IMG/VR virus record: IMGVR_UViG_2879765931_000003
DNA: 33,073 bases
Reading direction: 5' to 3' (one strand)
DNA from: a virus
Lineage: Duplodnaviria; Heunggongvirae; Uroviricota; Caudoviricetes
The notes beneath the pieces were generated by a model. It was not told where the DNA came from. It did not search any database and was given only the letters and a program-made list of their open reading frames with translations. A program made the position numbers and the translations under genes. Shown one piece after another: positions 6,457 through 33,073 of this stretch (its first letter is position 1; every line of letters starts with the position of its first letter).

Positions 6457-6815
6457 TTACCTCGCATTTAAGTAAACTACGTTCTCCTCTTGTGCCGTAT
6501 TTGTGCCATTGCGACTTATAATCGCATCGATTTTGCTCGCGTGCTCGGTGAGATGCCCGGCTGAAAGGTGGGCGTATCTTTGAACCATTTCGAGAGTTTC
6601 CCATCCTCCCATCTCTTTAAGCGCAAGAAGAGAGACACCGGACTGAACCAGCCAGCTTGCCCAGGTATGCCTCAGGTCATGGAAGCGGAAGTTGCTAATG
6701 CCTGCCCGCTTTAACGCTCCCTTCCATGCCTTGTTGCTGTCGGTTCTCATCTTCCTTACCGCTGCTGTTTTTGTTCCGTCGCTTCGGTAGGCAGGTTTGG
6801 TGTGGACAAACACCC
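6457..6815 (-). pseudogene. int: Phage tyrosine integrase, C-terminal fragment (a third, divergent int), 5'-truncated by IS600
   Basis: ...[55 protein letters not shown]...; stop lies 14 nt from the att core, the same geometry as int copy B. Confidence 0.8.
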
Positions 6816-6858
6816 TGAGGTGTACTGGCAATAGCGGACACTACCATTTGTTCTTTTT

Positions 6859-10035: not shown

Positions 10036-10092
10036 TGGAGCCATACAGCCTCACACTCGATGAGGCCTGTCATTTTCTCAAGATTGAAGTGG

Positions 10093-11296
<1,204 letters not shown>

Positions 11297-12294
11297 CTCT
11301 GTTCAGGTGGCCAAATTCAGTGTGCCACTTCAGATATCCAGACCGACTGCCATTAACTGGATACGCACAGGGCGTCTTCAGGCAACACGCAAAGATCCCA
11401 CTAAGAATAAATCTCCTTACCTCACAACACGACAAGCCTGCATTGCGGCTCTTCAGTCTCCGCTGCATACTGTCCAGGTGAGCGCGGGTGATGGCATAAC
11501 AGAGGAAAGAAAATGTCACTCTTCCGCAGAGGTGAAATATGGTACGCCAGTTTCACATTGCCGAACGGTAAAAGATTTAAACAGTCTCTTGGAACAAAGG
11601 ACAAAAGGCAGGCGACAGAACTCCATGACAAGCTAAAGGCTGAAGCATGGCGGGTCAGCAAACTTGGTGAAATACCTGATATAACGTTCGAGGAAGCGTG
11701 TGTCAGGTGGCTTGAAGAGAAAGCACATAAAAAATCACTGGACGATGACAAAAGCCGGATCGGATTCTGGCTTCAACATTTCGCAGGAATACAACTAAGA
11801 GACATTACTGAATCAAAAATTTATTCAGCAATGCAGAAAATGACGAACCGGCGTCATGAGGAAAACTGGAAACTCAGGGCAGAATCATGCAGAAAAAAAG
11901 GGAAACCTGTTCCAGAATACACGCCAAAACCAGCGTCCGTTGCAACGAAGGCTACGCATCTTTCATTTATAAAGGCCCTACTAAGAGCCGCAGAGCGTGA
12001 ATGGAAAATGCTGGATAAGGCACCAATTATTAAAGTGCCTCAACCAAAGAATAAACGGATCCGCTGGCTGGAGCCCCATGAAGCACAAAGGCTGATTGAT
12101 GAATGTCCGGAGCCATTAAAGTCTGTTGTTGAATTTGCACTGGCAACAGGCTTAAGACGCTCGAACATCATCAACCTTGAATGGCAACAAATAGATATGC
12201 AGCGCCGGGTGGCATGGATAAACCCGGAAGTGAGGTAGCCTGAGTTTAACGGACACTCCTTCCTGAAATAGAATGGCATCAGAAGGAGCTAATA

Positions 12295-12597
12295 ATGAGC
12301 AGAAAAACCCGACGTTACTCTAAAGAGTTCAAAGCCGAAGCTGTCAGAACGGTTCTTGAAAATCAACTTTCGATCAGTGAAGACGCTTCCCGATTATTCC
12401 TTCCTGAAGGCACTTTAGGACAATGGGTTACCGCCGCCAGAAAAGGGCTCGGTACTCCTGGTTCCCGCACGGTGGCTGAACTGGAATCTGAAATTCTGCA
12501 ACTGCGTAAGGCGTTAAATGAAGCTCGCCTTGAGCGAGATATATTAAAAAAAGCAACAGCGTATTTTGCACAGGAGTCGCTGAAAAATACGCGTTAA
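12295..12597 (+). CDS. IS600 OrfA
   Basis: 100 aa. Confidence 0.88.
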   Translation: MSRKTRRYSKEFKAEAVRTVLENQLSISEDASRLFLPEGTLGQWVTAARKGLGTPGSRTVAELESEILQLRKALNEARLERDILKKATAYFAQESLKNTR

Positions 12598-12632
12598 TCG
12601 AACAATGGCGACAACAATTTCCCATTGAAGCG

Positions 12633-13451
12633 ATGTGTCAGGTATTTGGTGTATCCAGGAGCGGTTATTACAACTGGGTACAGCATGAACCCTCAGACAG
12701 AAAACAAAGTGATGAGCGGCTAACACTGGAGATTAAGGTGGCACATATCCGCACTCGCGAAACATATGGAACCCGGCGGCTCCAGACGGAGCTGGCAGAG
12801 AATGGCATCATCGTTGGTCGTGACCGACTGGCACGTCTTCGTAAGGAGCTAAGGCTACGCTGTAAGCAGAAACGCAAGTTCAGAGCGACTACGAACCCGA
12901 ACCACAATCTGCCAGTTGCGCCAAATCTGCTGAACCAGACGTTCGCTCCTACAGCACCAAATCAGGTCTGGGTGGCGGACCTGACGTATGTTGCCACACA
13001 GGAGGGATGGTTGTACCTCGCTGGCATCAAAGATGTTTATACGTGTGAAATTGTCGGCTACGCCATGGGAGAGCGCATGACAAAAGAGCTGACAGGTAAA
13101 GCCCTGTTTATGGCGCTCAGGAGCCAGCGCCCACCTGCCGGGCTAATCCACCACTCTGATCGAGGTTCACAGTACTGCGCATACGATTACCGGGTCATAC
13201 AGGAGCAGTTTGGTCTGAAAACATCAATGTCGCGTAAAGGTAACTGTTACGACAACGCTCCGATGGAAAGCTTCTGGGGAACGCTGAAAAATGAGAGCCT
13301 GAGCCACTATCGTTTTAATAACCGGGATGAAGCCATCTCAGTAATACGGGAATACATTGAGATTTTCTACAATCGTCAGCGTCGTCACTCTCGTCTGGGG
13401 AATATCTCCCCGGCAGCCTTCAGGGAAAAATATCATCAGATGGCTGCTTAA
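12633..13451 (+). CDS. IS600 OrfB
   Basis: 272 aa. Confidence 0.88.
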   Translation: MCQVFGVSRSGYYNWVQHEPSDRKQSDERLTLEIKVAHIRTRETYGTRRLQTELAENGIIVGRDRLARLRKELRLRCKQKRKFRATTNPNHNLPVAPNLLNQTFAPTAPNQVWVADLTYVATQEGWLYLAGIKDVYTCEIVGYAMGERMTKELTGKALFMALRSQRPPAGLIHHSDRGSQYCAYDYRVIQEQFGLKTSMSRKGNCYDNAPMESFWGTLKNESLSHYRFNNRDEAISVIREYIEIFYNRQRRHSRLGNISPAAFREKYHQMAA

Positions 13452-13956
13452 AAAAGAACAAATGGTAGTGTCCGCTATTGCCAGTACACCTCAAAGAGAG
13501 TAAATCAAACCGCGCAATTGGCGTTGCGCTGAATGATACTGCATGTCGCGTATTGAAAAAACAAATCGGAAATCATCACCGTTGGGTATTTGTGTACAAG
13601 GAAAGCTGTACCAAACCAGACGGAACGAAAGCGCCAACAGTAAGGAAGATGCGGTATGACGCAAACACAGCCTGGAAAGCGGCGCTGAGACGGGCTGGTA
13701 TTGATGATTTCAGATTTCACGACTTGAGACACACCTGGGCAAGTTGGCTGGTTCAAGCCGGAGTCCCGTTATCAGTGTTACAGGAAATGGGAGGCTGGGA
13801 GTCTATCGAAATGGTTCGTCGATATGCTCACCTCGCACCTAATCACCTTACCGAACACGCACGGCAAATAGACTTGATTCTGAACCCATCGGTCCCAAAT
13901 TTGTCCCAGTCAAGAAATAAGGAAGGTACTAATGATGTGTAACTTATTGATTTTAA

Positions 13957-14290: not shown

Positions 14291-15463
14291 ATGCATATGA
14301 TTGAAATTAACAGTTTATTATTAATAACATCCGTGATATTGATGTCGTTATTAGCTGTGGGGTTATTTGATAAAATTTCCCCAATAAATCTTGTTGAGCA
14401 CGGCAGGAATAATCAAATAGATGGAATGCGGGGGTTCTTAGCAATTTTCGTGCTTATTCATCACGCAGCAATTTGGAATGGATACTTGTCATCTGGAGTA
14501 TGGGAAGCACCTTCATCAAATCTGTTAGCAAATTTAGGCCAAGTTGGTGTGTCATTCTTTTTTATGATTACTGGTTATCTGTTCTTTTCAAAGATTATCT
14601 CTGGAGATCAGGACTGGACAAGGCTTTATGTATCAAGATTACTACGATTAACCCCAATGTTCATAGTTAGCCTATGTCTCATTTTTATCATTGTAGGTTT
14701 TAAGTCTGGATGGAGAATGCAGGTATCCACAGAAGAGCTTTTTGTGTCAATAATGAAGTGGTTGCCATTCACTGCGCTAGGTATGCCGAACATTAATGAC
14801 GTAAAAGATTCATTTACTATCAATGCCGCTGTAACATGGACACTTGTATATGAATGGTTCTTTTATTTTTCTCTTCCGGTAATTTCCGCGCTCATAAAAA
14901 GAAAAGTCAGTATTTACATGGTTATGATTAGCGCAATATCGCTATTTGTTTTCATTTTATTTTTCAGTAAAATACACATAGCATCATTTCTTTTTGGGCT
15001 CCTGGCATTTTTGCTAAATAAATCAAAGATAGTCAATGGAATTGCCAAAGCAAAAGTAACACCAATTATAATAACTGCGATAATGGTTTTTGAAATGACG
15101 TATTTCAAAACAACTTACGCACCGCTACCACTGATTCTTTGTGGAATAACATTTATCATTATCGCATCAGGTTGTGATTTGTATGGAATATTAAGATTAA
15201 ATATAACCAGAAAGCTAGGAGAAACTACCTACAGCGTTTACCTTCTGCATGGGATATTCCTTTATTGCCTAATGACGTGGATTATTCCTAATAATTACAC
15301 TGAAAATACATTTATCATACTGGTAAGCACAACTGCATTTCTTATTACGTTCACATCATGCCTAACTTTTAAATTAATAGAGACGCCATTCATCAAATTA
15401 ACAAAACAAACCACAACTTTAGTAAAAGAATTAATACCCACATTAACAAACAACAATCAATAA
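14291..15463 (+). CDS. Acyltransferase family 3 integral membrane protein; candidate O-antigen O-acetyltransferase (Oac-like) conversion gene
   Basis: 390 aa, multi-TM; N-terminal ...DGMRGFLAIFVLIHH... and ...SFFFMITGYLF... motifs of acyltransferase-3 enzymes; occupies the cargo slot between att/int and the tailspike; AT-rich. The exact start (14291 or 14297) is uncertain. Confidence 0.78.
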   Translation: MHMIEINSLLLITSVILMSLLAVGLFDKISPINLVEHGRNNQIDGMRGFLAIFVLIHHAAIWNGYLSSGVWEAPSSNLLANLGQVGVSFFFMITGYLFFSKIISGDQDWTRLYVSRLLRLTPMFIVSLCLIFIIVGFKSGWRMQVSTEELFVSIMKWLPFTALGMPNINDVKDSFTINAAVTWTLVYEWFFYFSLPVISALIKRKVSIYMVMISAISLFVFILFFSKIHIASFLFGLLAFLLNKSKIVNGIAKAKVTPIIITAIMVFEMTYFKTTYAPLPLILCGITFIIIASGCDLYGILRLNITRKLGETTYSVYLLHGIFLYCLMTWIIPNNYTENTFIILVSTTAFLITFTSCLTFKLIETPFIKLTKQTTTLVKELIPTLTNNNQ

Positions 15464-15476
15464 ACAATAAACATAA

Positions 15477-15508
15477 GCCGCCCTACATATATGTCCAAAT
15501 GGGGCGGC
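15477..15508. terminator. Putative bidirectional hairpin between convergent acyltransferase and tailspike fragment
   Basis: GCCGCCC-(17 nt)-GGGGCGGC followed by an AT-rich stretch. Confidence 0.3.
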
Positions 15509-15516
15509 GAATGTAT

Positions 15517-16224
15517 TTATATTAGTCTGGTAATGCTAAATGCAAACGAACTGGAGATTCCTGCCCCGCTAAGCGTATTGCGCAGGGTCACCCTAAATGT
15601 ATCTACGCCAATATAAGTAACATCACAACTAACTGAATCAGGCGCAGATATAGGTGTTATCTGCACAATATAACCGCTAGCAACTGCTGCGAGCGGATGA
15701 GAAAAGCTAACATCATACACACCTGTAGAAACCACGTTAACCGATGAAACACCAGTAGCAACGTCGATACTACCATTGGCGTTAATTTTTCCCGAGCGTG
15801 TGACTGACAATGCAGAAGCCGATGTTACCTTACTGGTTGTTTCTGTAAAAACACACCCAATGTCAACTACCTCGCAATTAGCTCCTGTTATCCAGTATGG
15901 TCGTTCTGCACTTGGCTGATAATCCCCTGCGCTCTGGAACGTTGTGCCGTTGAGTATGACTGTAACTTTTCCCCCACCTGAGCTTGTTACTTGAATATTC
16001 GTGTGCGTGTATCTTGCACTGCTCACGCGATGAAAATTTCCACCGTTTATAACCACAGTTACAGGGCGCGTCCCAGTATTATCTATAGCAAGGTCTGCCC
16101 CCCCGGCATTAGCCTCAAAGTATGGGTTGTTTAATACCAAAGCGCACGAACCGTTAAGGCCATTTATAGCTAATTGCGCACCACCTGTACTGGAATCCCC
16201 CTGAGTACCATTTCCTTCACAAGT
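15517..16224 (-). pseudogene. Tailspike / tail-fibre receptor-binding protein, C-terminal ~235-aa fragment (N-terminus removed by IS600)
   Basis: Reading frame open from the IS600 boundary to the stop at 15517; Gly/Ser/Thr/Asn-rich beta-strand-like repeats; position downstream of the ejection genes as for P22 gene 9. Confidence 0.5.
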
Positions 16225-16266
16225 TGAGGTGTACTGGCAATAGCGGACACTACCATTTGTTCTTTT

Positions 16267-17085
16267 TTAAGCAGCCATCTGATGATATTTTTCCCTGAAG
16301 GCAGCCGGGGAGATATTCCCCAGACGAGAGTGACGACGCTGACGATTGTAGAAAATCTCAATGTATTCCCGTATTACTGAGATGGCTTCATCCCGGTTAT
16401 TAAAACGATAGTGGCTCAGGCTCTCATTTTTCAGCGTTCCCCAGAAGCTTTCCATCGGAGCGTTGTCGTAACAGTTACCTTTACGCGACATTGATGTTTT
16501 CAGACCAAACTGCTCCTGTATGACCCGGTAATCGTATGCGCAGTACTGTGAACCTCGATCAGAGTGGTGGATTAGCCCGGCAGGTGGGCGCTGGCTCCTG
16601 AGCGCCATAAACAGGGCTTTACCTGTCAGCTCTTTTGTCATGCGCTCTCCCATGGCGTAGCCGACAATTTCGCACGTATAAACATCTTTGATGCCAGCGA
16701 GGTACAACCATCCCTCCTGTGTGGCAACATACGTCAGGTCCGCCACCCAGACCTGATTTGGTGCTGTAGGAGCGAACGTCTGGTTCAGCAGATTTGGCGC
16801 AACTGGCAGATTGTGGTTCGGGTTCGTAGTCGCTCTGAACTTGCGTTTCTGCTTACAGCGTAGCCTCAGCTCCTTACGAAGACGTGCCAGTCGGTCACGA
16901 CCAACGATGATGCCATTCTCTGCCAGCTCCGTCTGGAGCCGCCGGGTTCCATATGTTTCGCGAGTGCGGATATGTGCCACCTTAATCTCCGGTTTTAGCC
17001 GCTCATCACTTTGTTTTCTGTCTGAGGGTTCATGCTGTACCCAGTTGTAATAACCGCTCCTGGATACACCAAATACCTGACACAT
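16267..17085 (-). CDS. IS600 OrfB
   Basis: 272 aa. Confidence 0.88.
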   Translation of the reverse strand: MCQVFGVSRSGYYNWVQHEPSDRKQSDERLKPEIKVAHIRTRETYGTRRLQTELAENGIIVGRDRLARLRKELRLRCKQKRKFRATTNPNHNLPVAPNLLNQTFAPTAPNQVWVADLTYVATQEGWLYLAGIKDVYTCEIVGYAMGERMTKELTGKALFMALRSQRPPAGLIHHSDRGSQYCAYDYRVIQEQFGLKTSMSRKGNCYDNAPMESFWGTLKNESLSHYRFNNRDEAISVIREYIEIFYNRQRRHSRLGNISPAAFREKYHQMAA

Positions 17086-17448
17086 CGCTTCAATGGGAAA
17101 TTGTTGTCGCCATTGTTCGATTAACGCGTATTTTTCAGCGACTCCTGTGCAAAATACGCTGTTGCTTTTTTTAATATATCTCGCTCAAGGCGAGCTTCAT
17201 TTAACGCCTTACGCAGTTGCAGAATTTCAGATTCCAGTTCAGCCAGCGTGCGGGAACCAGGAGTACCGAGCCCTTTTCTGGCGGCGGTAACCCATTGTCC
17301 TAAAGTGCCTTCAGGAAGAGATAATCGGGAAGCGCCTTCACTGATCGAAAGTTGATTTTCAAGAACCGTTCTGACAGCTTCGGCTTTGAACTCTTTAGAG
17401 TAACGTTGAACCGCCCCGGGTTTCCTGGAGAGTGTTTTATCTGTGAAC

Positions 17449-18331
<883 letters not shown>

Positions 18332-18335
<4 letters not shown>

Positions 18336-18658
18336 TTTTTCCAGAGGCGGTCGAACTCCGCCTTCGCAAAATAAGCGGAAGCCTGGCGAAGGATATCGTT
18401 ACTGCGGCGCAGTTCACGATTTTCACGCTCCAGCTCTTTCAGACGCTGACGTTCAGCGGTGGTGAGCCCTCCATCACCGCCCCCGGTATCCCGCTCATGC
18501 TGGCGAACCCAGACACGCAGAGTCTCCGGCGTACAGCCAATCTTTGGGGCAATGGAACAAATTGTCGCCCATTGTGAGTCATATTCGCCCTGACTTTCCA
18601 GAACCATACGGACTGCCCGTTGACGGACTTCGGGGGAAAAACGAGTATTTTTAGTCAT
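18332..18658 (-). CDS. IS629-like OrfA
   Basis: 108 aa, identical to copy 1. Confidence 0.82.
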
Positions 18659-18783
18659 CCTGTTTACCTCTTTCTCAGGAAGTTTAGTCTCCAGGATTCC
18701 CGGGGCGGTTCACGTTGGGTTTTTCTGCTCATTATTAGCTCCTTCTGATGCCATTCTATTTCAGGAAGGAGTGTCCGTTAAAC

Positions 18784-20514
18784 TCAGGCTACCTCAACTC
18801 TCTTTTCAATAGGGTCAAGGTTTTTCATCCCGCCAAGATCTTCTGCCACCTGTTTGAGCATTGACCTTGTTGATGGCGCATCAATTTTTGCACCTGCAGG
18901 CATCGCCTTTTCAACATTGCGATAAAGCTGGTCGCTTCGTTTCATCAGCGCAGACATTCTTCCATTGACCGTATCAATAAACTTGTCGCTCATACCAAGA
19001 GCATCTTTTGCACCGGAAACGCGATCAATTATCTCACCCGCGCCCTGTGCTAGCTGCCTGATTGCTTCATTTTCCTGCACCTGTAGAGCAGAACCCGCAC
19101 GGGACTTGATTGCTTGCTCAACTGCCTTGTATTGCTCGTTCCCGGAAAAGTGTGAAGGGAGTAATGAATCAACATTAAGCCTTTCAGCAGACTCCAGAAC
19201 TTCAGCCTGAGGATTGATATCTAGTTCATCAAGCGATGAAGCGAGATTTGGCCTTTTTTGTGCTGCTACTGTGCGAACGACTTCCTCTGGGTTCTTCGTC
19301 GCAGGCGTCATTGGTACACCTTGTGCTACTCTTGCCTCTGCGGCATGAACCGCAGGATTTGTTGCTGCAGCGGCATCACCGGAGAATGGTGATGTTTCTG
19401 TTGGCGCAGTGGTCGCTCTCTGTGCAGATGTTTTATTGCCACTAATTATATTTGATGCACCACGAACACCACGGGTAACGCCATTTATCAGGCCATGCGT
19501 AGCAATGCTAAGTCCGGCATTAATAGCGGCATTTTCGGCAAAATCACCCCGTTGATTCGCCGCGTCAGCGAGAGAACCAATGACCATGTTTCCAGCTACA
19601 CCTGCTCCAGGAACAAGATAACCGCCTATTGACTCTCCAGCTTGCGCGTAGGGGTCTGTCGGTCTGTCTACTGGACGATAAACATCATCCAATACTTTTG
19701 GCCCCCCAAGCCCCTGACTGATTGCATTAATCAGACTTGCGCCACCCTGCAATACGTCAAATGGTATGTTTACCAGACCACGACCAGCCTGTTCTGCAAT
19801 TTGCCCTGCACTTTGACCACCAGTGAGCCAATCGCCAGCTTGTTGCATCAATGATGGTTCTTCCCGTGTTGGTGCATTATTGGCCTGATTAACTGTTTGT
19901 TGCTGAACAGGTTTCGGTGCGACAGAACTTACGGGTTGAGGTGGCTGCTGACTGGCTGCCTGCTGCTCAATCTGAGCAAATGGATTATTTGGGTCTGACT
20001 GCACACCTGATGCCGATACTTGTTCGGATGACTGTACTTCCAGTTGTGCAAACGGGTTGTTAGGGTCTTGCTGAGGATGTACCTTTGCAGAGGTGGCGCG
20101 CTGTTCGACTGTTGAGTCTGTCACCGGGTCACCAGCCCATTGAGCAAAGCGATCATCAACGTAACCGCGGCCTTCAGGTCCTGGCGTATATTCACCACGC
20201 TTTGCCTTCATAACGTTGCCGGGACCGTCGTGATAAGCCTGAAGAGCGTCACGCCAGTTACCAAACTGCTGGTACATCTTTGCCAGATAGCGCGCGCCAG
20301 CGTCAGCCTGATATTCGGGGTTTTGCATTTGCTCATCGGTATAACCCATATCACGCCATGTCCCAGGCATGACCTGAGTCAATCCTACAGCCCCGGCGGA
20401 GCTTACTGCGGCAGGGTTGTAAGAAGACTCCTTGGCACCCAGTGCAGTCATCAACCCTTCTGGCACACCGTAACGTGCGCCAGCCTGCTCTAACAAATCA
20501 CGGTAATTAGCCAT
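18784..20514 (-). CDS. Ejection (injection) protein at the P22 gp16 position, with an N-terminal lytic-transglycosylase (SLT)-like domain; C-terminus replaced by the IS600 end
   Basis: 576 aa; ...[28 protein letters not shown]...[11 protein letters not shown]... resembles SLT motifs; the last codons and the stop lie within the IS600 terminal repeat. Confidence 0.6.
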
Positions 20515-21846
20515 TTACTGCCCCAAAGATGGAAGATATCCGTAGCGATTAATGAAGTCGATTGACAGCTCGGGGTGCTGCTTCAGGTAATCTATAGAAG
20601 CCTGAGGCGCTTCCACTCGCTTGATACCGTTTTGCTGAACGTACTTACCAACCGCCTCATTACGCTTCTGGTTGAGCGTGTTCAGGATGACGCCAGCGTT
20701 GCGACGAAAGGACTCCTCGCTCTGCGAGTTCTGCAGCGAACCAACAGCCTGGTCGAGCTTTTTGCCCTCGGCATCAGAAAGTGCGCCCATGCCTCGCATG
20801 GCCTGAACCGCTGTCAGGTATGCTTGTGATTTAAAGGTATCAAGTCGTGCCTGAGTGTCTGCAGCCTGTGAGCCTGGAACGTTGGGGATTACTCCACGTA
20901 AGCCTGTAATGCTCTTAAGTGAAGGAGAACTAACGATATCGTTCAGAGTGAACATGCTGGTTGTGAGGGTGTTGATGCCGTCTTTGTAGCCATCATTTAG
21001 CGCTTGCTGCTTCTGCTGCAACTGCTGGTTGTTGGCTGCTATGCGGCTCTGTATTTCCTGGCGCTTCAGGTCGTTAGTTTCTGCTGATAGCATCCGGTCA
21101 AGGCGCTTATTTTCGTTGTTAATGCGGTTTGTTTCTGCGTCCAGATTAATGCGCTGCTGACCTAAATTCGCCTGGATATCTTGTCCGCGCATTGTGATTG
21201 CCTGATTCCGAGCGGCGGTTTGCGAATCCAGATCCTGACCGCGCATGGTAACCTGGCGACCCTGCATTTTATCCTGTAGGTCAAAGTATTTTTCGGGCCC
21301 GAGACTGTTCATCCCCAGGTGATCGACAAATTCGCCGAACTGCCGCGGGTTCTGTTGGTACATCTGAGCGACGTCATGAGGATTAACGCCAACACGAGCT
21401 AACTCACCGGCGTTGTTTTGCAGCCATGATTGCATTGCTTCTGGAGACGATGACGCAAGGCGTGCGCCAGCCGCTAAGGTGCCGATAGAATTACGCTGCT
21501 CTTCATCAATGAATCCCATGCCTTTACGAACGGATTCAATCTGGTCTGGATATTGAGTAGCCAACTGACGCAAAGCACCGCGATCACCAGACGCATAAGC
21601 ATTAGCGTACGCCTGCTGAAATTCTTTCTGCCGCTGAGCCTGCTTTTCCTGCTGAAAAACACCCGCAATACCTGAAAGACCTTGCAAAGCAGTCAGCCCA
21701 ACATTGTTAGCGCCTGAACGCTCAATATCATTGTTCTGCCTGATAAGCTGAAGCGTATTGCCGATGTCATTTACGCTCGGAGCGTTTGAGTTGACGCCGC
21801 CGATACCAGCCAACAATCCGCCGTTTGTTCCTTGCCAAGTAGCCAT
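20515..21846 (-). CDS. Ejection protein at the P22 gp20 position
   Basis: 443 aa, coiled-coil/Gln-rich, synteny between gp7-like and gp16-like genes. Confidence 0.6.
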   Translation of the reverse strand: MATWQGTNGGLLAGIGGVNSNAPSVNDIGNTLQLIRQNNDIERSGANNVGLTALQGLSGIAGVFQQEKQAQRQKEFQQAYANAYASGDRGALRQLATQYPDQIESVRKGMGFIDEEQRNSIGTLAAGARLASSSPEAMQSWLQNNAGELARVGVNPHDVAQMYQQNPRQFGEFVDHLGMNSLGPEKYFDLQDKMQGRQVTMRGQDLDSQTAARNQAITMRGQDIQANLGQQRINLDAETNRINNENKRLDRMLSAETNDLKRQEIQSRIAANNQQLQQKQQALNDGYKDGINTLTTSMFTLNDIVSSPSLKSITGLRGVIPNVPGSQAADTQARLDTFKSQAYLTAVQAMRGMGALSDAEGKKLDQAVGSLQNSQSEESFRRNAGVILNTLNQKRNEAVGKYVQQNGIKRVEAPQASIDYLKQHPELSIDFINRYGYLPSLGQ

Positions 21847-21855
21847 GATTACCCC

Positions 21856-22548
21856 TTAAAACAACGAGCCAAGCAATCCGATACCAGCACCAATACCAGC
21901 GCCCCAAGGCGTTGATGTTCCCAAAAGGCTGGCAAGACCTGCACCGGCAATCGCACCAGACGTGCCACCGCTAATTGCAGTCTGAAGACTTGATGGTTTA
22001 TTGGCATTAGCAGCGGCAAGAGCTGCGCTTTGCTGTGCAATGCTGCTCATGTTGTTGGCGTACGTCTGCCCGGCGTTTGCCTGACCTTGCAGCGCACCAA
22101 GCCCAACGTTTGCCAGATTGTTGTAATTGCTCATCTGATTTGATAACCAAGACTGACCGAGTGTCGGCGCGATCGTAGCCAGTTGATTGCTTGTGGCTGT
22201 CGAACCAAGTCCACCCGTCGCCTCCGCAGCAGCAAGACTCTGGTAACGCGCCTGCCCTGCAAGGTCTTTATACTGCTTAGAGTTGTAATACTGATTAAGT
22301 GCCTGCCCCTGACCTTCTAAACTGGAAAGGTTCTGAAGCTGGTTAACATACTGCTCCGCAAGAGGCGTGAACGGAGCAAGGTTTTTCATGATCGTCTGCC
22401 ACTGCTGATTTTGCAGGTCTGCAGCATACTTCTGGGCTTCTGCTGCATACTTTGCGCTTTTATCAGAACTGCCACCTTTCCCGCCTTTTTCAGGGCAATA
22501 AGGTTCCTCGCCGCGCAGTTTTCTGCCCAGCTTAAATGCATATAACAT
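21856..22548 (-). CDS. Ejection protein, P22 gp7-like
   Basis: 230 aa, MLYAFKLGRKLRGEEPYCPEKGGKGGS..., Gly/Ala-rich C-terminal hydrophobic tail. Confidence 0.7.
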   Translation of the reverse strand: MLYAFKLGRKLRGEEPYCPEKGGKGGSSDKSAKYAAEAQKYAADLQNQQWQTIMKNLAPFTPLAEQYVNQLQNLSSLEGQGQALNQYYNSKQYKDLAGQARYQSLAAAEATGGLGSTATSNQLATIAPTLGQSWLSNQMSNYNNLANVGLGALQGQANAGQTYANNMSSIAQQSAALAAANANKPSSLQTAISGGTSGAIAGAGLASLLGTSTPWGAGIGAGIGLLGSLF

Positions 22549-22550
22549 GG

Positions 22551-23009
22551 CTATCTCCCGTGATTCAGGAAGTCGATTAGTTCTTCGCGTGTGGCGCTGT
22601 AAAAAGTCACGTCATCCACGCCTTTGAAGTATTTCTTGATGGTTCCTACACGCTTAAGGCCAATCATTGCGCAGTACATCTGACCGTGTCGGAATTTGCG
22701 TGCAGCGAACGATGTTACGCACTGAACGGTGGTGTTAGTCAGAATGTATCGCCAGAACGCCAGCCCAATTTCCTTGCTGAAGCCGCGAATCTCTGGCAGG
22801 TACATGGCGTGGCAATCTAATGTCAGCGGCTGAATCTCCTGATAGTAAACAATGCCGCCAAACTGACCGTGCACGTTCACCTCAAAGTAACGGCATTCAG
22901 GTTTGTAGTCGTATCCATCACCGTTGTTGCTCCCGGCGATAATGTCAGGGTGATTTCCGACTGCTTCTATCAGGTCGATGTTTCGCGTTGGTTTGAATGT
23001 AATCATCAC
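22551..23009 (-). CDS. P22 gp14-like protein (assigned by position)
   Basis: 152 aa between the needle and gp7-like genes; assignment by synteny only. Confidence 0.45.
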
Positions 23010-23854
23010 TGCTCCGCGATTATCTTGATGGTTGTGGCAGTAAACGCCGCACCATTCGACTGAATGGTTAACGTACTGCCATTTGTGGCAAGAAAGCCGT
23101 CTTTATCCACGCTGAAGAACGTAGCTAACAGGATGTTGTCGGTTGTTGTCGCCGCATTACGACTGCTGACCAGTGTGTCAGGAACAGAGTCGGAAAAGGT
23201 TAGCTGCATTGACCTGTTGGCGGTTCCGCTGGGCCACGTGCCGACAATCGACAACTTGAAGAGCAGGGTTTTGTTCTCGTTGAACACAACCATCTTGTTG
23301 TTAACGGTGTCGAAGAATGGTGCCAACGAGCCGGATGACGGTGTGAGCGTTTTCAGCAGGCTAACAAGGTTGGTCGGCGCTGTCGGGATGGTTACAGATA
23401 CACCAGAGTAAACAACCTCTGACTTCTTGCGTGTGGTTGCATACTCCAGAGCATCGATGCGCGTTTCATGGTCTGAAACCTGCGACTCCAGCGACTGAAC
23501 TCTTGTGTCAAGCGACGAAATATCGCTTTCATTCTGAGCTATTCGTGTTTCATGGTCCTGAAGAGTTGATTCTGCCTGTCTGATTCGCTCCTCATGATTA
23601 ACAAGCGTTGCTTCCGCAGCAGAAATTCGCTGCTCATGGTCAGCGAGAATCACATCCTGCTCATCGTTCCTGACCTGTGCATCATAAGCGCCCTGTCCGG
23701 CCTCGTTGGCTTTGTTAGCCACGTTACCAACATCAGTGCCCTGTGCGATAACGTAAAGCAGATACGACTGCGAGAAGATATTGCGTGGAAGGACTGATGT
23801 ATCGAGCCGCGTAGCTTGGATGATTACCGGCACATTGAGATTCGAATCAGCCAT
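23006..23854 (-). CDS. Tail needle (P22 gp26-like) with an extended C-terminal domain
   Basis: [43 protein letters not shown]... N-terminus and heptad coiled-coil; 282 aa versus ~233 aa for P22 gp26, the extra residues being C-terminal. Confidence 0.8.
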
Positions 23855-25272
23855 TACTCAATCCTTATCTGAGCGCCAGACAGAGTGACAGGTGACTTCG
23901 TGATAACGCGCAATTTGAAGCCGACATTTTTCCTGATGCGCCCTACTCGCTTCCACAAAACACGCTTGTCGTAAACGAACGGTTCATTCTGCTCAATCAT
24001 CTGCTCACGCCCGTAATTGATGCAGTCAGTGGTTGCAGAGAGAAAAAGGCGGTCGGCGTACTGCGCAACGCCAGTTGACGATTCAACCTCAAGGTCGAAC
24101 ACTCTGGCGTTATCCGCTTTGAAGAGTGGAGTAAACAGCAGGTGTTCCTGTTGCTTGTCGTACTGGCTGCTGATATCGAATTGCAGTTTCCCGGTAACAG
24201 ATTCCAGCTTATCGCCGCACGTTATCTGATTGCCTTCGTAAACGAAGTCGATAGCGCGGTACACATCGTCATACAGACCTGTTTTCAGCACACACCATTG
24301 TGGGCCATTGGCGCTTGAAGATGCGTCGTACACGAGGACGTGACGCGGAAGGTGGATAATCAGCAACTCATGAGCATCAAATCGCAGCGATTCCATCACA
24401 CCATCAGCCAGTTCATCAGCAGTGTAGGAGCGGAGGATTTTCTCAATGCTCGCGCTGGCAATTGGTGACACCTGACCGGAGTCGATGATATACACAGACG
24501 GCGCACCCGTTGCCGGATTGCTGATAAACGCATACGAATCAGCGAATGGCGTTTTGCAGTAAGTTCCGGCAATGCCTTTCTGCACCATCAGCGATGGTTG
24601 TGCAACATACAAAGCGGCACCAACGGTGGTTGCGCCAGTCAGGGAGAAATATTCAATAGTCGATGAACCAAAGCAGACGATGAAGTCTCGCCATGTCCCG
24701 ATACCGATGATGCCGTCAGGCTGAGACTCGGCACGATATTGTGCGCTGTAACGGTCAGGATGAGATTCGTCTTCAAGGTCAGTGATAAACCATGAATCAG
24801 TTCCGTCTTTTGACCACGCATAACGCCCACGTAAGCGCGTAATGTCGCGAACTGAACCTAACTCATACTGAGTGAATCCACTGTCTGTAGGCCAGTTTGA
24901 GACGGTTTTGACCGTGCCATCATAGCGATACTCGACCAGTTGACCATTAACGCCTACCGCCTGTGATGTCCGACCATGCGCCATTGATACACGACCACTT
25001 CCGGCAACATCACCGACTTCACTTTCTCCTTTGTACAGCTTGCCGCCACACACGCGATAAACAGCATTCTGCGCCATGTTGTACTCGACGCCGCGAGATA
25101 CACCGTTCACGTCAGAACGTTTGGCAATGCCCGGGAATGAGCGAAGATATCCGCTGCTGTTCAGGATTTCTTTGGGTGTAGCCAGCATATTCACTGGCAG
25201 ATAGTCGATATAGTCGGCGTTTCGGAAGTCTTTGCCGACACCTTTCATAAGCGGAAGTTGCTGAATAGGCAT
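23854..25272 (-). CDS. Tail accessory / head-completion protein, P22 gp10-like
   Basis: 472 aa, [49 protein letters not shown]... Confidence 0.85.
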
Positions 25273-25772
25273 TATTCGCTCCCGTTATCGCAAGGTTCCT
25301 TTCGGTGGAAGTAATTCCAACCATTCCACTTCGCCAACTGGTTACCACTACCAACAGGCATACGGTTTGGATAACCGGACTTACATTTAGCTGCTTTTGC
25401 CCTGTCCATTGCAGACAGTTTGACGAGTCGCTCTTTCCCGTATCTGGCAGTGGTTATGAGTTTTGCAGACGCTTCCAGCGCATAATCTGGAGCAATTCGG
25501 CAGGCAAGGTTGAAAATGACGGCATTGATAGCGTTATTTGATAAACCGTGCTCATCGCCCGGATCCGGAGCAACATCTGCATCAGCAAAAATGTAGCCAA
25601 CGTTGATACCAGGTGACGCATCACCGCCAAGCCATTCAGCCATCATCATTTCAAGGTCGTTGACGCCGTCTTCCATAGACTGCGGTTCGACATCGGTTAA
25701 CGTGGCATTTGATGCAACACCGAGCTTACGTAATGCCGCAAGAACTAAATCACCCTTCGTTGTCAGGTTCAT
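25272..25772 (-). CDS. Tail accessory / head-completion protein, P22 gp4-like
   Basis: ...[29 protein letters not shown]...[14 protein letters not shown]...; start set at the internal Met ([10 protein letters not shown]) by analogy with gp4, while the listed ORF extends to 25841. Confidence 0.75.
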
Positions 25773-26028
25773 CTGCTGCCGCCTTAGGTTTTCGACCAGG
25801 CTTTTTACGCTGTTTTTCTTCTGGCTCTGGCTCTGCAACATCCTTCAAAAGGTCATCAGGATGTGAAAACCAGCCAGCATCCAGATATTCCTGAAGCTCT
25901 TCGGCTTTCACGATTTCAAAGTCGTAGCCAACGCCTTTCCACTTCTTCATGTCGCCATGACGAAAGATCATGTGTGTCATGCTTGTCTCCAGATAAAAAC
26001 GGGAGCCGAAGCTCCCTCTGGTTATCAC
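25750..26028 (-). CDS. Small hypothetical protein between coat and gp4-like genes
   Basis: 92-aa ORF with a charged C-terminal tail ([27 protein letters not shown]). Confidence 0.4.
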
Positions 26029-27320
26029 GCGGTCTGGTTAGGCAGACCAACACCAATTGCCTCTGGTCGTACAGCACATGCTGAATACCACACAGCAATA
26101 CGGCACTTACCAGACAGAGTGTTGATATCACCCTGCGTTGCGAAGATGCCGTTAACACCAATACCTGGAATGCTGAAGGAAGACGTTTTCATGCCAGCAA
26201 ACAGTTCATGGGTTACCGGGATCGGCTGAGACAGCAGGCGGATTGAGTCATCAGCCCAGAACACGTTAGCGGTGGTTGTTGCCACGTTCAGAACGTTTAC
26301 CGGAGTGGTATCAGCAAGAGAGGTGTTTACGTTAGCGTAAGCCTTCTCTTCTTTTGTCAGTGACGCGTCATCCAGCGCAATCGGCTTCGGCGTGATTTCG
26401 ATGTGAGTACCATCGATCACACGGGTGATTGAGAAAGTCGCGTCATCAGTCAGCACATTCTTCGCCATCTGAGACAGGAACTTCACACCAATGAAGCTGA
26501 TTTTGTCGCCGCGCTTAAATCCGGTGGTGGAGGATACGGTCACCGTTGCAACACGGTTGTCGACGTTCTCTTTGTTACCATCGGTATCAAGGGTGTATGC
26601 CTGCGGCTTAAACTTCTGCGCACCAGAAACAGTTACACCAGTCGCGGTTGACTTGGTAACTGCCGGAAGTTTCGGTGAGCGAAGAATTTCATCAAAGCCA
26701 GCAATCTGACGCTGAATAGTACCGTTTCGATATGCTTCTTCAGGAACGCGCCCGAAGATGTCACCATCTACCAGGTTGCGGCCTGCTTTGCGGTAATCGT
26801 CAGGGTTCAGGAAGTAACTGATGCCCATGTCGCGGTTTAGCTCACGGGAGAACATCAGTCGCTCTGCATCAGACACAAAATCCCAGCCAGGCAGGCCAGT
26901 CGATGGACCAATTGCGCGGGTATCGTGAACAACAAGCGAGCCCATTTCAGTTGCCTGTTTGGCAATCGCTGACTCAATGTTATTCGCCAGTTTTTTGGCG
27001 GATGCCTGGATGCGGCGACGGTAAGAACGCTCATCACGCAGGTCATCTGCACGAAGCTCGAAGAAATCGTTATCCGGATCGCCCATGTTGCACTTCACGG
27101 AGAGTTCCAGAATCCCGGTTGCGTTGCCAGTTAAATCCCAGCCAGTCTGGGTTGGCGCTTCCTGCTCAACAGGCATCCACACGGTGTTGCTTGAACGCTG
27201 CATGGATTCTGCCGGAGGGGAGTATTTTGTCACTTTTGACGCCATTGGCGTCAGGTTCTGGACGGTTCCGATGATTTCATCCAGAGCATACGTGACCAGT
27301 TGACCTTCATTTAATGCCAT
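26025..27320 (-). CDS. Major capsid (coat) protein, P22 gp5-like
   Basis: 431 aa, [21 protein letters not shown]...[16 protein letters not shown]... Confidence 0.9.
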
Positions 27321-28231
27321 TATCGAATTCCTTTATTCAGTTGCGCCTTGAGCTTGCGGTACGTCTCTACATCCCCTTTGTTTGCTGCCGCCTCCATCTG
27401 CTTTTCAATCGCAGAGATATTTGCAGCAACAGCATGTCCCTGAATGGGTTCATCAGGTAACGGGGCTTCTGAAACAGGCTTGGCTCGAGGCTTGAGAGTT
27501 AAACGTTCTGACAGTCGAGTGAGTTCAATCAGCGCGGATTGCCCGTCCATCGCCAGCAACTGGCGTGTTTTCTCAGGATTAGCACCAAGGTGATACATGA
27601 GAGCGGCGGATTTCTCCGGGAAGAGGCGCATGATGTCGGCACCGACTGCTGGCGGCACCAGTTGCATGAATGCATCCTCTTTCTCCTGATAGTCAGGGAT
27701 ATTGAGCTTTTCCGCTGCCTCGTAGTGCTTACGGGCCGCCTCGACGTATTGCGCTGATTGCTGGGTGAACTCCTGAGTTTTGCGACCCTGCTCGGCGACA
27801 GCCTGGCTTCGTGCGTCCATAGCCTTGATCTGCCATTCACTGTTTGCCTGCTGGAAGGCAGCCAGTGCGCGGCTCTGGTCATAGTCGTACTTAGCCAGTG
27901 CATCTTCGGAAAGATAATCGTTAGGGTCTGGTTGTTTTGGTAACTCAGGGTTCACCCGCAGGTGCTCCGGCAACTCTCCACGCTTAACCGCTTCCATCTG
28001 CTGCTCAAGCTCACGCTGGCGTTTGCGTTCGATGCGGCGACGGGCAAATTCAGCATTAGTTGCCGGGTCTTGTTTTGGTTTCTCATCGTCTTTCAGGACA
28101 ATCTCAAAGCCTTCTTCCTGACCTGCGCTGTCGTTGGCATTATCGACAACTAAGCCATCAGCAGATGCCGCTGCATGATTGCCGGGCAGGGTTAATTCTT
28201 CAGAAGCCTGAATGTCGGTGGTTTGGTCCAT
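27320..28231 (-). CDS. Scaffolding protein, P22 gp8-like
   Basis: 303 aa, ...[53 protein letters not shown]... Confidence 0.9.
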
Positions 28232-28244
28232 GATTAACTCTCTC

Positions 28245-30231
28245 TTATTGAGGTGTCTCGGCTACTCCGCCGGAGGGGATTTGAACTTGACGCATAAGAT
28301 TCGCGAAATCCATGCGTTGTGAATGAGTCTGGTCTGCATCTTTAAGAAGCAGCTCAGCGTTAGCACGAGCATCTTTGCTGCGCTGTTGCTGGAATTGACC
28401 TACGAGCCTGAGGTACTCACGCAGTTCTGCCTGCTTGTCGAGGTCCATATTGTTGAATATTTCTGCAATCTTCGCGGCGTTGAGTTGGTTTTGGGCTTCA
28501 ACCTTGGCAGCTTCAACCTGAATCTGCGCCTGTTGGTTCTCTGCCTTGAGCAATTCAGCCTGACCTTGCAGAAGGATACCCTGCGCCTGAATTTGCTCTG
28601 CTGATGGCTGCTGCGGCTGTTGTTGTGCCTGCTGCACCATCTCCATCTCTTCAGGTGTTTCTGGTTTCTTCAGCCCCATCATCACCAGTTGCTTGTTCGC
28701 GTACTCTCGCATCATCTCGACGCCTTTACCGTCAAGCAGCGTGAAGTATTGCAGCATCAGCATCTGGAACTCTGGAGTACCTTGCGGAACCTTGGTGAGC
28801 AACTCCTGAATCTCTGCGCGGTTCTGTTCCTTCATACTCTGGAAGGATGGCCCAACGTCTGTATAGCACTCATATCGACCGCGAATGTCGTTGAGTGTGA
28901 CCACATTGCCGGACTGGTAATCGACAACTTGCGCATAGAGTTGAACGTCTTTCTCGCTTCCATCTTCAAGTGTCAGCGTTACATGACGAGGAACGTCATA
29001 AATATCGTTGACCATTGAGGCATAAATCTCGCCATCACGTCGCATTGCGGTAGCCAGGTTATCCTGAAACACGTATGTCTCAAGGTCTGCCCGCATGTTC
29101 AGTTGATTGACGGTATCAAAAGCGACCTGACCATTTGCCGCCTGCGCATCCACGCCAAGACTAGCCACTTCTTTCACTGCGTTGGTGGCAGCCTCAAGCA
29201 TGTAAGCGTTGGCTTGCGGCACTTCAGGGTTTTCCATGTAGGAGATTGGACCAATCGGCAGGTCGTTACCGTTTTCATCGGTCCTGTTCTGCAGATAGTA
29301 CGGATAGTCATCATTTCCGCCGTACATGTATTCGTAGCCTTCGATTTGCTCAGGGAAGAAGGTCGGTTTCTTCTTCGGTGACCGAGCAACAATATCGGCG
29401 TTGAACGACATAATCATGTTACGAAGGCGTTGACCGTCTTTCGTCAGCCTTACCACACCCTCGTAGCACTCCTTGTCACCAGCGAATGACCATTCGCCAT
29501 ACACTGGAACGATTGGAATATGCTCTCCGGCTATCTTCTCGCGGTCTTTCAGTATCTGCGTACAGGTGATGATCGACTTATACACACGCCGACGCTTCAC
29601 CTTGCGCTCTGCTACCTTAATGAATCCACGATTAGCCAGGTCGTCGATGACGTCTTTGATATCCTGCTGGTAATAGCTGACCGGCTCACCTGTCAGCGGG
29701 TCGCGGTAGATGAAGACCTTCTCCTTCTCCTCTTCTACCTCGTAATACTCAGCGACGTAGACGACATCATTCGACACCCACGGGAATAGCCATGTATCGT
29801 TAGGATTCTGGAAAGATGGCAGGGTATCCGGGTCAATACCGTAATCCTCTGCGAACTCTTTCCAGCCATTGCGCGACAAGGCGTTAATCACCGTGCAGTG
29901 CTTAGCGTCGCTCTTATCCATCTGCTTGCTGTTGGCGTCTCATATGACGTGTGAGCAGGCTTCATGGATTGGCAGGCGTCGGATTACCTGATTGTTGCTT
30001 GTTGGATCGTTGTCTTCGTACTGCGTGACCAGACGCCATGCACCAACGCCTGACTCTATCTGCTCACGAACGCCAACGTTAACGGCAATCTTTGCCGTGT
30101 TATGGCGCATATCAGTACGATACATCCCCATCAATACATCGGCTGCATCAGGATTAGCGCCGTCTTTGGGTCGGAAGAGAACGTCGACAGGGTTCCGGCG
30201 CATCTCTGCGACCAGTTTCCTGACCCCCGGG
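28245..30231 (-). pseudogene. Portal protein, P22 gp1-like, with an in-frame TGA (29940-29942) and the 5' end removed by IS911
   Basis: ...[31 protein letters not shown]...[28 protein letters not shown]... is continuous in one frame; the IS911 terminus abuts at 30232. Confidence 0.88.
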
Positions 30232-30267
30232 TGAAGTGGCACACTGAATTTGGCCACCTGAACAGAG

Positions 30268-31472
<1,205 letters not shown>

Positions 31473-31500
31473 CCACTTCATTGCAACAAAGGTAAAGACG

Positions 31501-31788
31501 ATGGATGAAGAATATCGTAAAGACCTGCAACTGTGGTTTGGTCTTACGCATACGTCGTTCTGCGTGATGCCGCGAGTATTCATGGAGGCTATGCCTCCAG
31601 AATGGCAAGAGAAGATGGCTCAGTTGCTTTTTGAGTATAGCGACACGATCAAAACGGATGTCTGCGGAGTTCACAGCTGTTTTGTTACTGCCAAAGACGG
31701 CAACAACCGCTTTATGAGGATGCCAGAAGATATTCTGAACTATCGTCATCCTCGACGTGAATTCATCGAATCATTTCTGAAGAAGTAG
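31501..31788 (+). CDS. Hypothetical protein (95 aa) isolated between IS911 and IS2
   Basis: MDEEYRKDLQLWFGLTHTSFCVMPRVFMEAMPPEWQEKMAQLLFEY...; ATG at 31501 with AAAGG-like RBS upstream; the listed ORF start at 31402 lies inside the IS911 end. Confidence 0.45.
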   Translation: MDEEYRKDLQLWFGLTHTSFCVMPRVFMEAMPPEWQEKMAQLLFEYSDTIKTDVCGVHSCFVTAKDGNNRFMRMPEDILNYRHPRREFIESFLKK

Positions 31789-31844
31789 CCATTACAAAGC
31801 CTATCTACGGGTGGGTTTGATAATGGCTTATACTGGATTTGCCC

Positions 31845-32750
31845 CTATATTTCCAGACATCTGTTATCACTTAACCCATTACAAGCCCGCTGCCGCAGAT
31901 ATTCCCGTGGCGAGCGATAACCCAGCGCACTATGCGGATGCCATTCGTTATAATGCTCGAACGCCTCTGCAAGGTTCTTTGCTGCCGTTAACCCGTCTGG
32001 TTTGGGCATGATACTGATGTAGTCACGCTTTATCGTTTTCACGAAGCTCTCTGCTATTCCGTTACTCTCCGGACTCCGCACCGCCGTGTTCTTCGGTTCA
32101 AGTCCCAACATCCGGGCGAACTGGCGTGTTTCATTAGCCCGGTAGCATGAACCATTATCCGTCAGCCACTCCACTGGAGACGACGGAAGATCGTTGCCGA
32201 AGCGGCGTTCCACCGCTCCCAGCATGACGTCCTGTACTGTTTCACTGTTGAAGCCGCCGGTAGTCCCCGCCCAGTGCAGTGCCTCACGATCACAGCAGTC
32301 CAGCGCGAACGTGACACGCAGTCTCTCTCCGTTATCACAGCAGAACTCGAACCCGTCAGAGCACCATCGCTGATTGCTTTCTTTCACGGCCACTCTGCCT
32401 GTATGTGCCCGTTTCGATGGCGGTACAGCAGGTTTTCGCTCAAGCAACAGCGCATTCTGGCGCATGAGCCGGTAAACACGTTTGGCATTGATCGCAGGCA
32501 TACCATCAAGTTCTGCCTGTCTGCGAAGCAGCGCCCATACCCGACGATAACCATACGTGGGCAGCTCTCCGATAACATGGTGTATACGGAGAAGCACATC
32601 CGTATCATCAGTGTGACGACTGCGGCGGCCATCCATCCAGTCATCGGTTCGTCTGAGAATGACGTGCAACTGCGCACGCGACACCCGGAGACAACGGCTG
32701 ACTAAGCTTACTCCCCATCCCCGGGCAATAAGGGCGCGTGCGCTATCCAC
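31845..32750 (-). CDS. insD: IS2 InsD transposase
   Basis: 301 aa. Confidence 0.85.
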
Positions 32751-33073
32751 TTTTTTGCCCGTCCATATTCAACGGCTTCTTTGAGGAGTTCATTTTCCAT
32801 CGTTTTCTTGCCGAGCAGGCGCTGGAGTTCTTTAATCTGCTTCATGGCGGCAGCAAGTTCAGAGGCAGGAACAACCTGTTCTCCGGCGGCCACAGCAGTA
32901 AGACTTCCTTCCTGGTATTGCTTACGCCAGAGAAATAACTGGCTGGCTGCTACACCATGTTGCCGGGCAACGAGGGAGACCGTCATCCCCGGTTCAAAGC
33001 TCTGCTGAACAATTGCGATCTTTTCCTGTGTGGTACGCCGTCTGCGTTTCTCCGGCCCTAAGACATCAATCAT
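32708..33073 (-). CDS. insC: IS2 InsC
   Basis: 121 aa, [41 protein letters not shown]...; start codon at the last 3 nt of the window. Confidence 0.85.

Follow-up and report, generated by a model that had tools for sequence, protein, structure and literature searches.

A portal pseudogene interrupted by an in-frame TGA in an IS-riddled Shigella prophage remnant

Why should a P22-type portal gene carry a single in-frame TGA when its reading frame is open on both sides of that codon? Here we examine this question in a stretch of viral DNA of 33,073 nucleotides (IMG/VR record IMGVR_UViG_2879765931_000003; hereafter referred to as the window). Our reading, to which we assign a probability of about 0.94, is that the TGA is a spontaneous G-to-A transition that converted Trp157 of the portal to an opal stop when the prophage carrying the gene was already dead. 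This prophage is the Sf101-like, oacB-carrying Lederbergvirus remnant situated beside a gtrI cluster in Shigella flexneri. A Trp-to-stop change in a dead, IS-riddled prophage amounts to the routine decay of a gene; it reveals no new mechanism.

The interrupted portal frame and its ancestral codon

Reading of the sequence and its translation locates a single TGA in the portal frame of the minus strand, at 29942..29940, in the context CAT GAA GCC TGC TCA CAC GTC ATA TGA GAC GCC AAC AGC AAG CAG ATG GAT AAG. On its 5′ side, the frame is open over 96 codons (30230..29943), as far as the end of IS911; on its 3′ side, it is open over 564 codons (29939..28248), followed by the native stop (28247..28245). 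In the ORF list the gene is split into 29940..30257 (105 aa, with a GTG start within the IS911 terminal repeat) and 28245..29921 (558 aa, beginning at Met164), and positions 29919-29942 extend from the T of the TGA to this downstream ATG (29921..29919). The gene is thus composed of three parts:

29943..30230, minus strand: portal codons 61-156, the 5′ remnant left by an IS911-adjacent deletion (alignment to IME10 and Dewey; junction mapping)
29940..29942, minus strand: the in-frame TGA, portal codon 157, which is Trp (TGG) in relatives (alignment with IME10 and Dewey)
28245..29939, minus strand: portal codons 158-721 and the native stop (PF16510, P22_portal; gene callers give 558 aa from Met164, at 29921)

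At the nucleotide level, annotated portal genes from five Lederbergvirus phages (IME10, Dewey, Louie, HZ41 and APC_JM3.2) are 97-98% identical to this gene, and PF16510 matches both of its halves. In a three-way codon alignment with IME10 and Dewey, the portals of which are 721 aa in length, TGG is present at codon 157 in both phages and no indel occurs across the lesion. Because the two flanks align one-to-one with one continuous homologous protein at this level of identity, chance can be ruled out as the origin of the split frame. A phmmer comparison with solved structures matches the protein over its whole length (residues 3-721, E=0) to the P22 portal chains 3LJ5 and 5GAI, in both of which the residue in question is Trp158, within the motif ACSHVIWDSNSK. 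The Sf101 portal (Sf6-type, 34% identity) has Phe aligned at this position, which is therefore aromatic across the portal family and Trp within the P22/IME10 type. The initial annotation of this locus had held that the TGA splits the portal without a change of frame, that it is one substitution away from TGG and that P22 has Trp here. Its coordinates and frame agree with the sequence and with the indel-free codon alignment; the Trp is found in IME10, in Dewey, in a sister remnant described below and in 3LJ5 and 5GAI, and alignment to P22-family portals places it at Trp158 in P22 numbering.

Between the TGA and the ATG lie six codons (DANSKQ) of ordinary portal sequence that is conserved, and intact homologues are continuous proteins of 721-725 aa across codon 157; none was found to start at the downstream Met. 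That Met is thus the internal Met164, which refutes the view that two genuine genes lie here. Homology to P22-type portals extends along the whole protein, but the uninterrupted frame of ~721-725 codons is missing (TGA at codon 157; codons 1-60 deleted), and the gene, although a portal by homology, is consequently classed as a pseudogene. As in other nonsense-mutation pseudogenes, orthologues have a sense codon one substitution away and the frame is unchanged.

Occurrence of the lesion in Shigella flexneri

The portal TGA is a genuine mutation that is widespread in S. flexneri and common to most sequenced copies. Exact matches to the 558-aa product are indexed in 148 blocks of the assembly collection, and eight places were fetched, six of them large chromosomal records at NCBI (four CP-numbered chromosomes and two NCTC scaffolds) and the other two an NCBI draft contig and a Logan read-set assembly. 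The identical TGA is present in 8/8 of these independently assembled S. flexneri loci, a sample that is biased toward TGA carriers by its retrieval via the exact 558-aa match. One of them (L004; CP026871.1) is 100% identical to the window over 18245..33073, so that the window derives from this genome or from a close clone of it. By exact look-up, 140 contigs contain the 156-aa N-terminal half and 124 contigs the 558-aa half; the sources name them as Shigella flexneri proteins ('putative packaging glycoprotein', 'portal domain protein'). The lesion is thereby reproduced in independent sequences (8 assemblies; 124-140 contigs), a second property of a nonsense-mutation pseudogene, and the possibility that re-sequencing might return TGG is in effect answered by eight independent assemblies that all have TGA.

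Intact alleles are also found. The reconstructed full-length portal allele with Trp is present in one S. flexneri record (exact look-up), and a second intact 721-aa S. flexneri portal allele occurs on a few contigs. Among 5,426 complete E. coli genomes (RefSeq), the IS911-portal junction is absent, with coverage ending at the junction, and the only portals detected are intact ones of ~97-98% identity. The exact TGA-bearing 40-mer gave 0 hits in the GTDB species-representative genomes, probably because Shigella has no separate representative among them, which makes this result uninformative.

IS911 and the lost 5′ end of the portal

Two features lie next to the truncated end of the portal gene:

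30232..31480, plus strand: IS911 (orfA ~30304-30606, orfB 30633-31472), with its IRL end toward the portal and no target-site duplication (terminal repeats; HTH_Tnp_1, rve)
31481..31844, plus strand: what remains, between IS911 and IS2, of an ORF from the lysis module whose product has 172 aa in sister genomes

IS911 opens with TGAAGTGG at 30232 and closes with the complement of this repeat, whose last base is 31480. With these terminal inverted repeats and with orfA and orfB (100-aa HTH_Tnp_1 and rve products), the element has the make-up of an IS911 (IS3 family) insertion, and it is 100% identical to the IS911 copy of sister locus L003. The last base of portal origin is 30231, the third of codon 60; all that precedes it in the gene (codons 1-59 and two bases of codon 60) is lost. 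The flanks of IS911 are GCAA and CCCG, without duplication, and the gene does not resume beyond the element, the far side being a lysis-module fragment and neither portal nor terL. By comparison with other carriers, the window and L004 are missing ~1.2 kb on the portal side of IS911 (the 3′ part of terL and the portal 5′ end), and by comparison with L003 they are also missing ~1.05 kb beyond IS911 that holds Rz and a lysozyme fragment.

The portal 5′ truncation is an IS911-associated deletion or rearrangement. IS911 had initially been held to truncate the first ~60 portal codons. The loss of these codons stands; it is the outcome of an IS911-adjacent deletion without target duplication. A simple IS911 insertion was rejected on two counts, the lack of a target duplication and the loss of DNA from either side of the element.

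A second IS911 copy, at 10085-11332, is 99.9% identical to that at 30232-31480. In L003 (5637-7194), the lysis genes (lysozyme fragment, Rz and the 172-aa ORF) lie across IS911 on the strand opposite to terL and portal; this opposed orientation in sister genomes indicates that an older inversion or rearrangement came before the deletions of the window.

Order of events and sister lineages

All copies of the remnant are ~99.9% identical to one another. A SNP table polarised with IME10 and Dewey displays three groups: group A (L003, L005-L010 and L011), group B (the window and L004) and group C (L012-L014), the separation of A and B from C resting on few characters, namely the TGA site itself and IS911 orientation. 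In this table the TGA is derived and common to groups A and B, whereas TGG is found in group C as well as in the outgroups. Homoplasy is seen at one synonymous site (L005 position 10642). At portal codon 62 (30227-30225), P22, IME10 and Dewey have GTG (Val), groups A and B have GGG (Gly) and group C has GAG (Glu); with three states at this codon, the same base was struck twice within the Shigella lineage.

In most carriers (L003 and L005-L010), the portal N-terminus is intact and lies downstream of a 300-aa 3′ terL fragment cut by IS911. The terL breakpoint is the identical nucleotide in L003, L005, L009, L010, L012 and L014; L011 and L013 start within three bases of it, and their IS junction is therefore not visible. 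Since this breakpoint is common to groups A and C, the packaging enzyme was most parsimoniously destroyed before W157*. TGA-bearing sisters retain the portal 5′ end and the 3′ part of terL, which makes the deletion in the window younger than the TGA. The TGA would thus be older than the portal truncation and younger than the terminase knock-out. In the order that we propose, IS911 would first have broken the large-terminase gene terL, at the breakpoint common to the copies; W157* would then have arisen in one sub-lineage, the sister lineage keeping TGG; and the lineage of the window would later have lost terL and the portal 5′ end beside IS911.

The nucleotide at the terL breakpoint joins the IRR end of IS911 in group C and the IRL end in groups A and B (L012 1-160 and L014 1-60 versus L003 8431-8501 and window 30232). 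Such an in-place flip of IS911 is not what a plain IS-IS inversion would yield.

One draft S. flexneri contig, L011 (GCA_013999945.1, AAVCDU010000108.1), has TGG though it is nested in the TGA clade. Its TGG lies within a ~184-bp cluster of 8 private differences (equivalent to L005 9955-10138), 6 of which, or 6 of 7 when SNPs are counted, agree with the Dewey allele. The presence of TGG inside the TGA clade indicates that reversion, gene conversion or assembly chimerism occurs, and the patch points to gene conversion from another P22-like phage or to a chimeric short-read assembly. L011 was also considered as a carrier of the ancestral TGG and was rejected as such: it has two private SNPs in common with L005, inside the TGA clade, and its TGG sits in the clustered foreign-allele patch. 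Should the patch be real, the dead remnant would be swapping short tracts with incoming P22-like phages, a prospect that we regard as rather unlikely; if such exchange were true, late-gene segments could be repaired or donated, and the remnant would be a recombination reservoir instead of inert junk. Neither the in-place flip of IS911 nor the L011 patch alters the reading of the TGA.

Various further lesions are present in the sister copies. Group A genomes (L003 and L005-L010) carry gp20 Q366* (L005 position 19171), and the coat gene of L003 has a 1-bp deletion (L005 position 12704). In group C, a copy of IS911 lies inside gp20 at ~codon 403 (seen in L012), and gp7 of L012 has an insertion or duplication of ~326 bp.

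Selection on the late genes

The late genes are under strong purifying selection in comparison with free phages. The portal pN/pS is 0.03 relative to Dewey and 0.06 relative to IME10, and seven other comparable late genes, when pooled, give 0.05-0.065. Changes internal to Shigella have a different composition, with 22 nonsynonymous or nonsense versus 6 synonymous, a count that leaves out the L011 patch, an IS-end pseudo-SNP (L005 position 9690), one intergenic site and one frameshift. Under neutrality, 76% of changes are expected to be nonsynonymous, and the 22:6 ratio agrees with this value (binomial p=1.0), whereas a phage-like 18% is rejected (p=4e-12). Changes within the Shigella lineage therefore fit neutral drift, and the relaxed selection on the gene block is the third property of a nonsense-mutation pseudogene.

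Only 5.2% of random substitutions in the late genes create a stop, and the lineage of the window has undergone ~4 substitutions in 11 kb since the copies diverged, for which the probability of no further stop is ~0.8. With so few substitutions and so low a rate of stop formation, the 'open' genes next to the portal need no special explanation.

The rest of the late module and its genomic setting

Downstream of the portal, and on towards the distal end of the element, the window contains the following:

27320..28231, minus strand: scaffolding protein gene, full length, 303 aa (length as in Dewey/IME10; pN/pS 0.07)
26025..27320, minus strand: coat protein gene, full length, 431 aa
20515..25772, minus strand: gp4, gp10, gp26, gp14, gp7 and gp20, all full length in the window
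18797..20514, minus strand: gp16 homologue cut at codon 573 of ~911; the ORF enters IS600 for 3 codons, with a stop at 18784
16230..18796, minus strand: IS600 interrupted by an IS629-type element (from ~18712); outer coordinates approximate
15517-16140, minus strand: tailspike 3′ fragment (91.5% nucleotide identity to the Sf101 tail protein)
14291-15463, plus strand: oacB, Acyl_transf_3 domain (91.5% nucleotide identity to Sf101)

Product lengths equal those of Dewey/IME10 for scaffold (303 aa), coat (431), gp4 (166), gp10 (472), gp14 (151), gp7 (230) and gp20 (443); for gp26, every copy has the same knob-type allele of 282 aa. The gp16 product corresponds to residues 1-573 of the 911 residues of Sf101 gp13 at 99% identity (blastp), and the IS600 end TGAGGTAGCCTGAG adjoins gp16 from ~18796 downward. 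The other flank of this IS600 is the tailspike 3′ fragment, so the 3′ part of gp16 and the 5′ part of the tailspike gene are deleted. The initial annotation described the late module as defective, which the loss of terL, the split portal and the cut gp16 bear out. Its further statement that the genes from scaffold to ejection proteins remain open is accurate from scaffold through gp20 and fails at gp16, which is cut by IS600 at codon 573/911.

Together, oacB and the tailspike fragment (14291..16140) form the distal end of the same Sf101-like prophage. The insertion sequences here are nested, with an IS600 at gp16 codon 573 and, ~85 bp inside it, the IS629-type element. Elsewhere, IS600 splits an integrase gene into fragments at 11513-12238 and 13478-13942 (region 11513-13942), and a further integrase fragment (6457-6831) lies beside another IS600.

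The genes gtrA-gtrB-gtrI are present in the window too, with 99.9% identity to those of phage SfI. In gtrI (3392-4913, minus strand), an A-run near ~4040 contains an extra A (A9, versus A8 in SfI), which results in a frameshift after ~residue 291 of 506. This frameshift could be a slippage pseudogene that affects serotype, or else a homopolymer sequencing error.

Alternative explanations for the TGA

Of the other explanations, the one that survives best, though it is very unlikely, is adaptive inactivation, in which the nonsense mutation was selected as a means of disarming a still-inducible prophage. Grounding of prophages is generally regarded as favoured, and this general expectation speaks for such selection, as does the near-fixation of the lesion among sequenced S. 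flexneri copies. However, the TGG-bearing sister lineage has its terL cut at the same breakpoint, next to IS911, which places the loss of packaging before W157*; with terL already broken, selection for disarming is unlikely. Moreover, the substitution pattern is neutral, and other lineages bear different, unrelated lesions.

Programmed recoding, in which insertion of Trp or selenocysteine at the UGA would let some portal be made at full length, is less probable still. UGA is the leakiest stop in enterobacteria, and decoding by the near-cognate tRNA-Trp would restore the native residue, which is the case to be made for it. Against it, the homologues have TGG and the stop is thus not a conserved recoding site. 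A search for a recoding element (SECIS or similar) gave no Rfam match at E<=1 in 28000-31000, and no tRNA, hence no suppressor tRNA, was found in the window; selenocysteine or suppressor decoding was rejected on these grounds. Read-through would in any case rescue nothing, given that the first 60 codons, terL, terS and the upstream region of the late operon are gone and that gp16 and the tailspike are truncated.

A sequencing or assembly error, with G as the true base and a gene intact at codon 157, is barely credible. Single-base differences can be errors and the draft contig L011 has TGG, but the same TGA recurs in assemblies as diverse as complete genomes, NCTC scaffolds and a Logan short-read assembly, the half-proteins are found on more than a hundred contigs, and the change is a substitution and not a homopolymer indel. 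Just as implausible is a separate 558-aa protein starting at Met164, as gene callers and NCBI records that list 156-aa and 558-aa products separately might suggest, since every intact relative is continuous, DANSKQ is conserved portal sequence and no obvious Shine-Dalgarno motif precedes the ATG (by eye); nor was a promoter-like site seen near the portal stop or junction.

Consequences of the lesion

Lost through the stop at codon 157 are the trigger loop with its KRRR motif (P22 residues 226-277) and the hammer loop (456-505), as well as the stem, clip, crown and barrel; ring assembly, scaffold and terminase binding, and interactions with ejection proteins depend on these parts of the portal (PMC13386823). 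Neither half of the portal would make a functional product, and the 558-aa 'protein' from Met164 would be a gene-caller artefact. The lesion may have reached its high frequency through drift, or because it was linked to O-antigen-modification cargo (oacB/gtr) under selection and hitch-hiked along. The full-length neighbours, from scaffold to gp20, would persist only because too few mutations have yet accumulated.

Pseudogenes of this sort, in Shigella prophage remnants riddled with IS elements, are well known, the portal gene here being a textbook instance, and the lesion is implicit in public annotations that list the two portal halves separately. The 156-aa and 558-aa 'proteins' of many S. 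flexneri genomes (the 558-aa one here too) are halves of one pseudogene and should be annotated as such; beyond annotation, the importance of the finding is small. The locus does provide a clean, datable decay series (terL knock-out, W157*, IS911-adjacent deletion), together with independent lesions in sister lineages, and the steps of this series could be used as markers to tell apart lineages of the oacB/gtrI region in S. flexneri. The locus is also an illustration that no functional reason is required for neighbouring genes of a young remnant to be 'open'.

Comparison with known systems

The remnant resembles other cases of IS-driven prophage decay in Shigella in its independent nonsense, frameshift and IS lesions and in its neutral N:S ratio, and nothing about it is distinctive in this respect. 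Its oacB belongs to a locus known as a 'transposon-like structure', of which Wang et al. (2014) reportedly gave the original description. The location of this structure upstream of adrA has been published, and the layout of the window corresponds to it (PMC4159516, PMC4206707, PMC5596473). In strain Y394, an oacB cryptic prophage has been reported near the gtrI cluster (PMC5596473); similarly, oacB in the window is a few kb from gtrA of the gtrI cluster. The portal lesion is not mentioned in this oacB/Sf101 literature (PMC4159516, PMC4206707, PMC5596473), and we found no paper that describes it.

The P22-type portal (gp1; PF16510; PDB 3LJ5, 5JJ3) is uninterrupted, whereas the copy in the window has a TGA at 157 and is without codons 1-60. 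The closeness to the Dewey/IME10 portal consists in 97-98% nucleotide identity over codons 61-721, and the full-length S. flexneri allele (L003) differs from that of Dewey at only 5 residues (V62G, I75V, W157*, K228E and K668R), all of them in codons 61-721. With the serotype-converting phage Sf101, an oacB carrier (PMC4159516), the element has in common the gene order gp10...gp20-gp16-tailspike-oacB-int, and sequence identity amounts to 96% from gp10 to gp16 and to 91.5% for oacB plus the tail protein. It differs from Sf101 in that it is cut up by IS911, IS600, IS629-type and IS2 elements and cannot be a phage, and in that its head genes (portal, scaffold and coat) are of the Dewey/IME10 type, the Sf101 portal being only 34% identical. 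The element is a mosaic, with head genes of the Dewey/IME10 type and distal genes of the Sf101 type.
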